Source: an uncultured Acidobacteriota bacterium (GTDB taxonomy: Bacteria > Acidobacteriota > Thermoanaerobaculia > UBA5066 > Gp7-AA6). Taken from it: DNA of 64,000 bases. Position 1 is the stretch's first letter. Each line of letters opens with the position of its first letter. The stretch covers positions 1,112,620 to 1,176,619 of the forward strand of contig CAVTON010000002.1 in the NCBI GenBank assembly GCA_963736455.1. The letters are read 5' to 3'. The notes below the pieces were generated by a model. The model was not told where the DNA came from. It saw only the letters and a program-made list of their open reading frames with translations, and did no database searches. This document shows, one piece after another, positions 14,863 through 15,990 of this stretch. Made by a program: the position numbers and the translations under genes.

Positions 14863-15990
14863 TTACCTGCCGGCCGCCGCTCCGATGGCCTCGGAAAGCG
14901 GCGCGCCGGCCTTCGGGTTGAAGGACCTCCAGTCCTTCCCGAGGAGCGCCGCCACGGTCGCGGCGATCTGGCTCTGCGTCACGGGCGCCGCGTTCTTGCG
15001 CTCTCCGAGCGCCGGCGTGTCCGGTCCGAGCGCCGCGATCCACATGTTCTCGGCGCCTTCCACGTTCCAGTCGTGGTTCTTCCAGTTCTCCGGACCGTCG
15101 CCCCGCCCGTGGTCCGTCGTGATGAGGAACGTCGTCCGATCACGGTACTGCGGGATCGACTGCATCGTCGTCCACAGCTCGCGGATGAACCCGTCGACGT
15201 TGTGGGCGGACTGCAGTACGAGATCGTACCGGCCGTCGTGCGCCCATTCGTCCGTCTCGCCGAAGCCGACGAAGAGCAGCCGCGGCTTCTCGGCGGCGAC
15301 ATAGGCGAGCAGCGTCTGCTGGAGAAACGCGTCCCAGGGCATGTCGGAGAACTCGTGGGTCACGGTGCGGTACAGGGTGTTCAGGAGCTGCTGGCGCGGA
15401 ACCGAGGTGTCGGGAAACGGCGTGTCCCACCCGGTGCGCATGGGGAGATGGCTGCGCTCGCGGTTGAAGATCCGCGGGAACGCGTCCCACCCCCCGATGA
15501 CGGCCACGCGCCCGTGAAACTCGGGCATGTCGTTCAGCCACTCGAAGACGGAGACGTTGGGATTCGGACCGTACTCGTTGCGGTCGATGCGCGGGTCGCC
15601 CGCTCCCGTGATGATCTCGTTGTAGCCGGGATACGAGAACTTGTAGCCGTTGACGACCCGGGCGGAGCTGCCCGCGTCGACGTTGCCGTAGATCTGCCCC
15701 TCCCGCGCGATGACCGACCAGAAAAACGGAAGAAGGGCCTCCCGCCGCTCGGCCGGCGTCGGCCGCCAGAAGGCGGCCTTGGTCGCGGGCACGTCCTCGA
15801 CGCCGCCCGGCTTCTCGCTGACGAGGGCGGTCTCGGCGCCGCGGAAGACCTCCTGCCACCGAAATCCGTCGGTCACGATGACGACGACGTTCCGGGTCTT
15901 CGGCGCGCTGGCCGGTGGGCCGGCGAGCGCCGAAGCCGAGACGACGGCGACCGCGGCGCAGAGGGTGGCGATCCGGCGAACAGTCTTCAT
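14863..15990 (-). CDS. Secreted alkaline-phosphatase-superfamily enzyme (type I phosphodiesterase / nucleotide pyrophosphatase, NPP-like)
   Basis: Signal peptide [35 protein letters not shown] (NPP DGxR motif), TTDHGRGDG (DHG motif). The ATG overlaps the stop of the upstream fusion gene (ATGA); GAGGT RBS. Confidence 0.7.
   Translation of the reverse strand: MKTVRRIATLCAAVAVVSASALAGPPASAPKTRNVVVIVTDGFRWQEVFRGAETALVSEKPGGVEDVPATKAAFWRPTPAERREALLPFFWSVIAREGQIYGNVDAGSSARVVNGYKFSYPGYNEIITGAGDPRIDRNEYGPNPNVSVFEWLNDMPEFHGRVAVIGGWDAFPRIFNRERSHLPMRTGWDTPFPDTSVPRQQLLNTLYRTVTHEFSDMPWDAFLQQTLLAYVAAEKPRLLFVGFGETDEWAHDGRYDLVLQSAHNVDGFIRELWTTMQSIPQYRDRTTFLITTDHGRGDGPENWKNHDWNVEGAENMWIAALGPDTPALGERKNAAPVTQSQIAATVAALLGKDWRSFNPKAGAPLSEAIGAAAGR

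Follow-up and report, generated by a model that had tools for sequence, protein, structure and literature searches.

In a 64,000-nucleotide stretch of DNA from an uncultured soil Acidobacteriota bacterium (contig CAVTON010000002.1, positions 1,112,620 to 1,176,619; hereafter the window), a gene encoding a kinase/phospho-lyase fusion (15987..19019, minus strand, 1010-residue open reading frame) runs into a gene encoding a predicted exported protein of the alkaline phosphatase superfamily (14863..15990, minus strand, 375 residues; hereafter AP-like, and called NPP-like in an earlier note on this DNA). Judged from sequence, the two genes form a translationally coupled operon: they share a strand, overlap, carry an internal ribosome-binding site and keep their junction among relatives. 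Comparison with other genomes further indicates that the pairing of the two families is a facultative association that arose independently in two lineages. The conserved junction and the second, independent pairing make a functional coupling of the AP-like enzyme to the kinase/lyase plausible. We tentatively prefer the interpretation that a phosphoester is cleaved in the periplasm and that the released amino alcohol is taken up and broken down by the kinase/lyase, a serious possibility that falls somewhat short of probable. The window has a G+C content of 70.7%, and its nearest relatives are metagenome-assembled genomes labelled Acidobacteriota or Thermoanaerobaculia.

The start codon of the AP-like gene (ATG, 15990-15988) and the stop codon of the fusion gene (TGA, 15989-15987) overlap by 4 nt on the minus strand, giving ATGA at 15987..15990 (TCAT on the plus strand), just as the earlier note had read it. 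A Shine-Dalgarno-like GAGG (15996..15999, minus strand) lies 5 nt 5' of the AP-like ATG, within the last fusion codons (..GTG AGG..). AGG makes up 3.4% of the arginine codons in five local genes, and the retention of so rare a codon at the junction suggests selection for a ribosome-binding site. A scan for promoters and terminators gave nothing above shuffled sequences, and no promoter-like site was found between the fusion and AP-like genes. The AP-like start is set at 15990 because of the lengths of the homologues (120 of the 120 listed have 352-396 residues) together with the analysis of the junction. A 1153-residue open reading frame called at 14863-18324 (minus strand) is spurious, the AP-like frame being open for 2.3 kb upstream inside the GC-rich fusion gene.

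Conservation of the pair was followed in both directions. In a forward test, 80 loci with AP-like relatives (the best 80 of at least 597 loci; labelled L001 and so on) were searched with the neighboring window proteins, and in a reverse test the same question was put to 83 loci with relatives of the three-domain fusion. Among the 80 loci, the three-domain fusion adjoins the AP-like gene only in L001-L007, where the AP-like proteins are 69-93% identical, the NTP-transferase/GHMP side of the neighborhood is syntenic as well, and a class-V aminotransferase-fold gene and an alcohol dehydrogenase (ADH) gene are present in most. The reverse test found the AP-like gene only in L084, L085, L087 and L110, whose fusions are 65-78% identical and whose loci are fully syntenic. 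The 4-nt overlap (ATGA or GTGA) and the preceding GTGAGG are kept in 11 of the 12 syntenic loci of this Thermoanaerobaculia-type clade, and across these loci the start codon (ATG or GTG) and the signal-peptide sequence vary while the junction stays. The only clade member without the overlap is L007 (~9940-11095), in which the fusion frame continues to a TAG at 11093-11095; this read-through suggests a frameshift or an assembly error.

The second pairing is found in Steroidobacteraceae-type Gammaproteobacteria. In the Steroidobacteraceae locus L044, an AP-like gene (1075-2175) lies immediately upstream of, and overlaps, again as ATGA (2172-2175), the gene of a 791-residue fusion that consists of the APH and Aminotran_3 domains without the M23 domain found in the window. 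Relatives of this fusion were searched for and eight of their contexts were looked up. In L164-L167, whose fusions are 60-78% identical to that of L044, an AP-like gene of 366-397 codons lies immediately upstream on the same strand. The AP-like proteins of L044 and L164-L167 are 55-57% identical to that of the window, and the genes meet as ATGA in L044 and L164, as GTGA in L165, and across gaps of 48 nt in L166 and ~31 nt in L167 (an overlap in three of the five). Compared with the window pair, the gene order is reversed, the M23 domain is missing, and the fusions share 26-32% identity in the kinase and ~40% in the lyase. In a neighbor-joining tree of 89 AP-like proteins, the two fusion-linked sets form separate clades, the gammaproteobacterial one nested among other Steroidobacteraceae-type sequences. 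The separate clades, reversed order and different architecture are the chief grounds for seeing in the association something beyond inherited synteny, and the second occurrence lends support to the earlier note, which had treated the adjacency as that of a functional pair.

Several observations weigh against a functional tie. The 11 clade loci amount to roughly one evolutionary event because they are close relatives whose whole neighborhood is syntenic. Overlaps of 4 nt are routine in this genome and also join functionally unrelated genes: the zinc-dependent ADH gene overlaps that of an S4/FtsJ (TlyA-like) methyltransferase at 21476-21479, and the latter overlaps the NAD kinase gene at 22204-22207. 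Hence, the overlap in the window does not by itself show a functional link, and it is conservation elsewhere that carries weight. The other 73 AP-like loci (49-61% identity), which come from Terriglobia, Gemmatimonadota, Gammaproteobacteria, Verrucomicrobiota and Planctomycetota, lack the fusion, with the exception of L044; conversely, the AP-like gene is absent from fusion loci L083, L086 and L088 (64-66% identical) and from 75 loci at 50-58%, and, in four of the eight further two-domain fusion contexts (P0298, P0337, P0356 and P0338), from beside fusions 52-60% identical to that of L044. Away from the pair, what lies immediately beside the AP-like gene varies widely (the 91 neighbors carry 101 Pfam families, and no family occurs in more than 3 of them), which fits a general-purpose enzyme, and clustering of the neighbors revealed no universal partner for either the AP-like or the fusion family. 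Furthermore, the operon in the window contains no transporter or regulator and is flanked by housekeeping genes, and the kinase domain has no close solved or characterized relative, its only match being a type-II homoserine kinase at 23.8 bits. The expectation that the two genes would be conserved side by side in other genomes is thus borne out for two lineages and for the junction within the clade, whereas the pair is missing from most loci of both families.

The pair could also be an operon of convenience, in which the AP-like protein would be a periplasmic phosphatase or diesterase that scavenges phosphate in general and has no tie to the substrate of the fusion, and the adjacency would be lineage-specific synteny in a compact, high-GC genome. 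The majority of unpaired loci in both families, the heterogeneous AP-like neighbors, the overlaps joining unrelated genes and the synteny of the whole clade neighborhood all favor this account, as does the adjacency of AP-like genes to TonB-dependent receptor genes in other genomes (see below), which is typical of nutrient scavenging. Set against it is the independent gammaproteobacterial pairing, in which the genes are adjacent and mostly overlap in spite of the reversed order, the different architecture and their place in a second clade of the tree. For a family present about once per genome, we estimate (this is an estimate, not a computed value) that direct adjacency would be repeated by chance with a probability of roughly a few percent, given the number of independent contexts sampled. 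We regard an operon of convenience as the main rival reading, a real possibility and only somewhat less probable than the one that we prefer.

By the criteria of both fold (in a structural model) and ligands (in sequence), the AP-like protein belongs to the alkaline phosphatase superfamily and has a two-metal core. The residues predicted to form the two-metal site encoded by this minus-strand gene, namely D41, the nucleophile S119, D247/H251, D293/H294 and H306, are invariant in 22 sequences of 56-94% identity, as is E245; the loss of metal ligands, which the earlier note had named as a result that would count against its proposal, was accordingly not seen on alignment, all seven residues being kept. 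These residues lie in the motifs FSYPGYNE (S119), GETDEWAH (E245/D247/H251) and TDHGRG (D293/H294), and a further motif, DGFRWQ, follows the first strand. In the AlphaFold2 model (pLDDT 87.7; secondary structure from DSSP), D41 comes directly after strand 34-40, S119 lies in the opening turn of helix 119-128, the pair D247/H251 is in the helix following strand 238-243, and D293/H294 come directly after strand 286-292, which in the model is the canonical layout of the superfamily. A Foldseek search of the PDB with this model returned 439 matches at E <= 0.001, and all 50 of the 50 listed are superfamily members with a probability of 1.0. The structural neighbors include carrageenan sulfatases, YejM, LtaS, Xac NPP and ENPP6, all at a TM-score of ~0.5 and 10-16% identity, none of them close.

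The earlier note had gone further and called the protein an NPP-type phosphodiesterase. The superfamily assignment stands, and there is a partial match to Pfam Phosphodiest (PF01663) at 27.4 bits (cut-off 23), confined to residues 192-302 of the protein and to positions 116-226 of the 342 in the profile; with 21.6 bits, the orthologue in L044 falls short of the cut-off. The protein resembles NPPs in its superfamily fold, in the order of its active-site residues (D...nucleophile...DxxxH...DH...H), in a DG[FL]R-type motif (here DGFRWQ), in its predicted export and in a partial Pfam match just above the cut-off. NPPs use the nucleophile motif T-x-P-N-H. The AP-like protein differs in having a serine, S119, in an invariant F-S-Y-P-G-Y-N-E (S-Y-P-G-Y) where NPPs have the threonine of T-F-P-N-H. 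Nor are NPPs its closest structural relatives: Xac NPP and ENPP6 rank 15th and 39th, with TM-scores of ~0.5 and 13% identity, no nearer than sulfatases or YejM. The NPP label is hence too specific for a protein with a serine nucleophile that is equidistant from sulfatases, YejM/LtaS and NPPs. In our reading of sequence and model, it represents an uncharacterized two-metal, Ser-nucleophile clade of the superfamily; the DGFRWQ motif and the arrangement of ligands are NPP-like, yet the protein is not a demonstrable NPP.

That the protein is instead a superfamily member of the sulfatase or mutase type, and not a phosphoesterase, strikes us as very unlikely. Sulfatases do top the Foldseek list, and the Pfam Sulfatase (PF00884; 20.8 bits, cut-off 25, residues 249-351) and Metalloenzyme (PF01676; 20.8 bits, cut-off 24.3, residues 228-296) scores, both below cut-off, are near that of Phosphodiest; no NCBIfam model matched. 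The formylglycine motif of sulfatases is C/S-x-P-x-R. The S-Y-P-G-Y of the AP-like protein has no arginine, which together with the sub-threshold profile score led us to reject a sulfatase identity, and the full two-metal ligand set contrasts with the single-metal site of sulfatases. The only sequence-level PDB match is iPGM (HMMER, E = 0.02), and the alignment pairs D247/H251 with the Asp and His of GDMVGH, and D293/H294 with DHG, which supports four of the ligands. iPGM and phosphopentomutase share with the AP-like protein a Ser nucleophile and a two-metal site, and in the iPGM match GETDEWAH is aligned with GDMVGH and TDHG with ADHG. They differ in being cytoplasmic and in having an extra transferase domain, and the similarity is slight (E only 0.02, Pfam below cut-off); the predicted signal peptide, too, would be unexpected in a mutase of glycolysis or pentose metabolism.

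The AP-like family has many members. More than 7800 homologous clusters at 90% identity were scored, and 471 clusters at 50% identity match at E <= 1e-30 (among 1.84 billion representatives); where source names are given, they read 'AP protein' or 'alkaline phosphatase family protein'. These hundreds of 50%-identity clusters come mostly from soil Acidobacteriota, Gemmatimonadota, Steroidobacteraceae, Verrucomicrobiota and Planctomycetota.

The AP-like protein is likely exported through the Sec pathway. A heuristic reading and a hydrophobicity scan identify residues 1-23, encoded at 15922..15990 (minus strand) and followed by GPP, as signal-peptide-like, with a basic n-region, a 17-residue hydrophobic core (12-residue Kyte-Doolittle mean >2) and an ALA site, after which cleavage is predicted. 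Homologues have equivalent N-termini of variable sequence that precede a conserved KTxNVVxIVxDG. We weighed VRRIATL as a Tat signal and ATLC as a lipobox and discarded both, as neither fits its consensus or is conserved in the homologues.

The fusion protein matches the NCBIfam model PRK06148 over its full length (1241 bits) and comprises an APH-type kinase domain (residues 26-265; 18225-18944, minus strand), an M23-like domain (Peptidase_M23, residues 435-533; 17421-17717, minus strand) and an ETNPPL-type pyridoxal phosphate (PLP)-dependent phospho-lyase domain (Aminotran_3, residues 601-1001; 16017-17219, minus strand). The best solved relatives of the C-terminal domain are human ethanolamine-phosphate phospho-lyase (6TOR, 486 bits) and an Arthrobacter phospholyase (5G4I, 335 bits), compared with 209 bits for dialkylglycine decarboxylase, the best match that is not a phospho-lyase. 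Ten members of the fusion family (56-74% identity) share invariant kinase residues N199/D200/N205 and D223-F-G-D226 and, in the lyase domain, an invariant GKP-motif lysine, K848, which we read as the PLP lysine. With phospho-lyases as its closest relatives and the kinase motifs present in the sequence, the description of this protein as a kinase-lyase fusion, first given in the earlier note, is sound. In the same ten proteins, the canonical Zn-binding and catalytic motifs of the M23-like domain, H436xxxD440 and H527xH529, are also invariant. The domain thus keeps intact motifs though the fusion is apparently cytoplasmic, and the gammaproteobacterial two-domain fusions lack it entirely.

Substrate precedents for kinase/lyases of this kind are ethanolamine, hydroxylysine and aminopropanol, and NPPs are known to cleave phospholipid head-group esters, head-group-releasing members including ENPP2, ENPP6 and ENPP7. 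In the mechanism that we prefer, the AP-like gene would be translated by coupling through the 4-nt overlap with the help of its own GAGG ribosome-binding site, and its product, a predicted two-metal, Ser-nucleophile phosphoesterase exported by Sec, would free an amino alcohol in the periplasm from a phosphoester unable to cross the inner membrane. Either a head-group diester from a phospholipid or a phospho-amino alcohol is a candidate for this ester. The freed amino alcohol would be imported by a transporter encoded elsewhere and phosphorylated in the cytoplasm by the APH-type kinase domain of the fusion, after which the ETNPPL-type domain would eliminate phosphate and ammonia from the phospho-amino alcohol, so that the overall products would be an aldehyde, NH3 and Pi. 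We infer export, phosphoesterase activity, substrate and order of steps from sequence. A broader claim, that the AP-like clade is a dedicated periplasmic head-group phosphodiesterase or phosphatase which, together with kinase/phospho-lyase fusions, constitutes an undescribed B12-independent route for ethanolamine-type amino alcohols yielding carbon, nitrogen and phosphate, we regard as unlikely on present evidence. If the coupling is functional, it would provide the first physiological context for a widespread, uncharacterized branch of the superfamily and for the bacterial kinase/phospho-lyase fusions, and would point to recovery of carbon, nitrogen and phosphorus by soil bacteria from phospho-amino-alcohol esters without the B12-dependent ethanolamine ammonia-lyase; if it is not, what remains is a commonplace boundary between two genes of an operon, in a genome that is compact and rich in G+C.

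The substrate could also come from the cell itself, the exported enzyme stripping phosphoethanolamine-type decorations from polymers or lipids of the organism's own envelope, or processing their head groups, in the periplasm and the kinase/lyase disposing of the amino alcohol as housekeeping salvage. YejM and LtaS, whose periplasmic domains act on envelope phospho-groups, are as near to the AP-like model as NPPs are (TM-score ~0.5), and the operon lies among housekeeping and envelope genes (Wzy_C, GT2, TamB). The AP-like protein is predicted to be soluble, with a signal peptide only and no membrane domain, unlike EptA, LtaS and YejM, and the TonB-receptor genes and catabolic clusters found around AP-like genes of other lineages suggest that the substrate is imported. 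Such envelope recycling appears improbable to us.

The two-compartment logic has known parallels. Periplasmic head-group release feeds cytoplasmic catabolism in the PlcH/PchP-choline system of Pseudomonas and with the GlpQ/UgpQ glycerophosphodiesterases. They share with the scheme proposed here an exported esterase that releases a small alcohol for import and catabolism; these systems differ in using HAD, GDPD and PC-PLC family enzymes in place of an AP-superfamily clade and oxidation in place of a kinase and phospho-lyase, and the window operon has no transporter. On the cytoplasmic side, hydroxylysine kinase and the phospho-lyases were reportedly identified by Veiga-da-Cunha and colleagues in 2012 in JBC. 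The window fusion shares with hydroxylysine kinase (AGPHD1/HYKK), AGXT2L1/ETNPPL, AGXT2L2/PHYKPL and the bacterial PRK06148/PRK06149 fusions an APH-fold kinase followed by a class-III-fold phospho-lyase, and differs in its inserted M23-like domain with intact HxxxD and HxH. In a passage of a later article, the enzyme identification by Veiga-da-Cunha et al. (2012) is cited as an example of gene fusions revealing functions even when both partners are uncharacterized (PMC12138971). The superfamily of each part, the kinase/phospho-lyase fusions and the logic of two-compartment head-group salvage are already known. In the literature searched, we found no description of the AP-like/kinase-lyase pairing, nor any link of these kinase/lyases to an exported AP-family partner; this AP-superfamily clade and its recurrent coupling to kinase/lyase fusions thus appear to be undescribed there.

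Outside the pair, TonB-dependent receptor-type genes directly adjoin the AP-like gene in 8 loci, at distances from a few bases to 44 nt, as gap or overlap. In six Terriglobia loci (L010, L013, L016, L025, L047 and L066), a gene for a ~1300-residue CarboxypepD_reg + OMP_b-brl_4 protein ends a few bases from the AP-like start, and in L012 and L051 a TonB-dependent receptor gene (Plug + TonB_dep_Rec) lies downstream. In nine to ten Steroidobacteraceae-type loci (L038, L053, L057, L058, L060, L061, L063, L072 and L076; e.g., L060 1584-14409), a paralogous AP-like gene comes directly after a PotG-like ABC ATPase gene and before a carnitine-3-dehydrogenase-like gene (558 bits, cut-off 592). The same cluster encodes a GbcA-like Rieske oxygenase, a GcvT/TMAO-demethylase-like protein, a GntE/GSA-aminomutase-like protein, two CrtI-like FAD oxidoreductases, a TetR protein and an acyl-CoA dehydrogenase, and from this gene content looks like an uncharacterized quaternary-amine catabolic island. 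Upstream of the AP-like/kinase-lyase pair in L166 (1728-3838) and L167 (1827-3925) are genes for an MFS transporter of MhpT-like type and for a DUF4886 protein with a signal peptide (GNSF motif, SGNH-hydrolase-like), and prolyl aminopeptidase and GbcA-like Rieske oxygenase genes converge on it. Taken as predicted from their genes, the TonB receptors, the amine-catabolism cluster and the MFS/DUF4886 context fit periplasmic scavenging and, in one lineage, amine catabolism. The picture suggested by these contexts is of a periplasmic scavenger recruited repeatedly into catabolic and uptake clusters, several of which deal with amines. A class-III aminotransferase gene directly downstream of the AP-like gene in L034 was not counted as a pairing, being of the ordinary transaminase type (Aminotran_3, 410 bits) with no kinase.

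Three-domain fusions in other Acidobacteriota adjoin genes for DUF4097 proteins, DUF4953 Met-zincins, DprA, TopA and menaquinone functions, which are uninformative on substrate. In 32 metagenome loci (among L089-L163, 50-55% identity), a gene for a 306-residue DUF4097 ('toastrack') protein lies upstream of the fusion on the same strand, mostly within ~100 nt; 18 of the 32 have a gene for an 830-residue DUF5117/DUF4953 Met-zincin further upstream. Genes for DprA and topoisomerase I lie downstream of the fusion, which thus has in these loci a conserved setting of another kind than the pairing with the AP-like gene.

In the window itself, the divergently transcribed genes beyond the fusion are as the earlier note had described them: a class-V aminotransferase-fold gene (19094..20341, plus strand; Pfam Aminotran_5; TIGR01976, 459 bits; VC1184-type, cysteine-desulfurase-like) and a Zn-dependent ADH gene (20457..21479, plus strand; from Pfam and NCBIfam, Tdh-like below the cut-off). 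The suggestion that both belong to the same catabolic module finds little backing. The class-V enzyme is syntenic in the Thermoanaerobaculia-type clade, and only L044 has a homologue (39% identical) near its pair, ~4.3 kb away, which leaves the membership of the enzyme uncertain; an Aminotran_5 protein in L081 was set aside as a counterpart, having no detectable homology to the window's enzyme. The stop codon of the Zn-ADH gene overlaps the start of the tlyA/FtsJ-like gene, which is followed by the NAD kinase gene. No Zn-ADH gene lies beside the pair in L044 or L164-L167, and outside the syntenic loci tblastn picked up nothing but a partial match in L024 (131 residues, 37%); the Zn-ADH is probably not part of the module.

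The wider flanks of the operon encode housekeeping and envelope proteins (RNase Y, YmdB, GT2, Wzy_C, XseA, polyprenyl synthase and AhpC), with TamB on the other side beyond nadK. An NTP-transferase and galactokinase-like GHMP kinase gene pair (12713-14853, plus strand) converges on the AP-like gene, with 9 bp and no terminator-like structure between the stop codons. The GHMP gene is syntenic in the clade and also lies ~4 kb from the fusion in L083, a locus without the AP-like gene.

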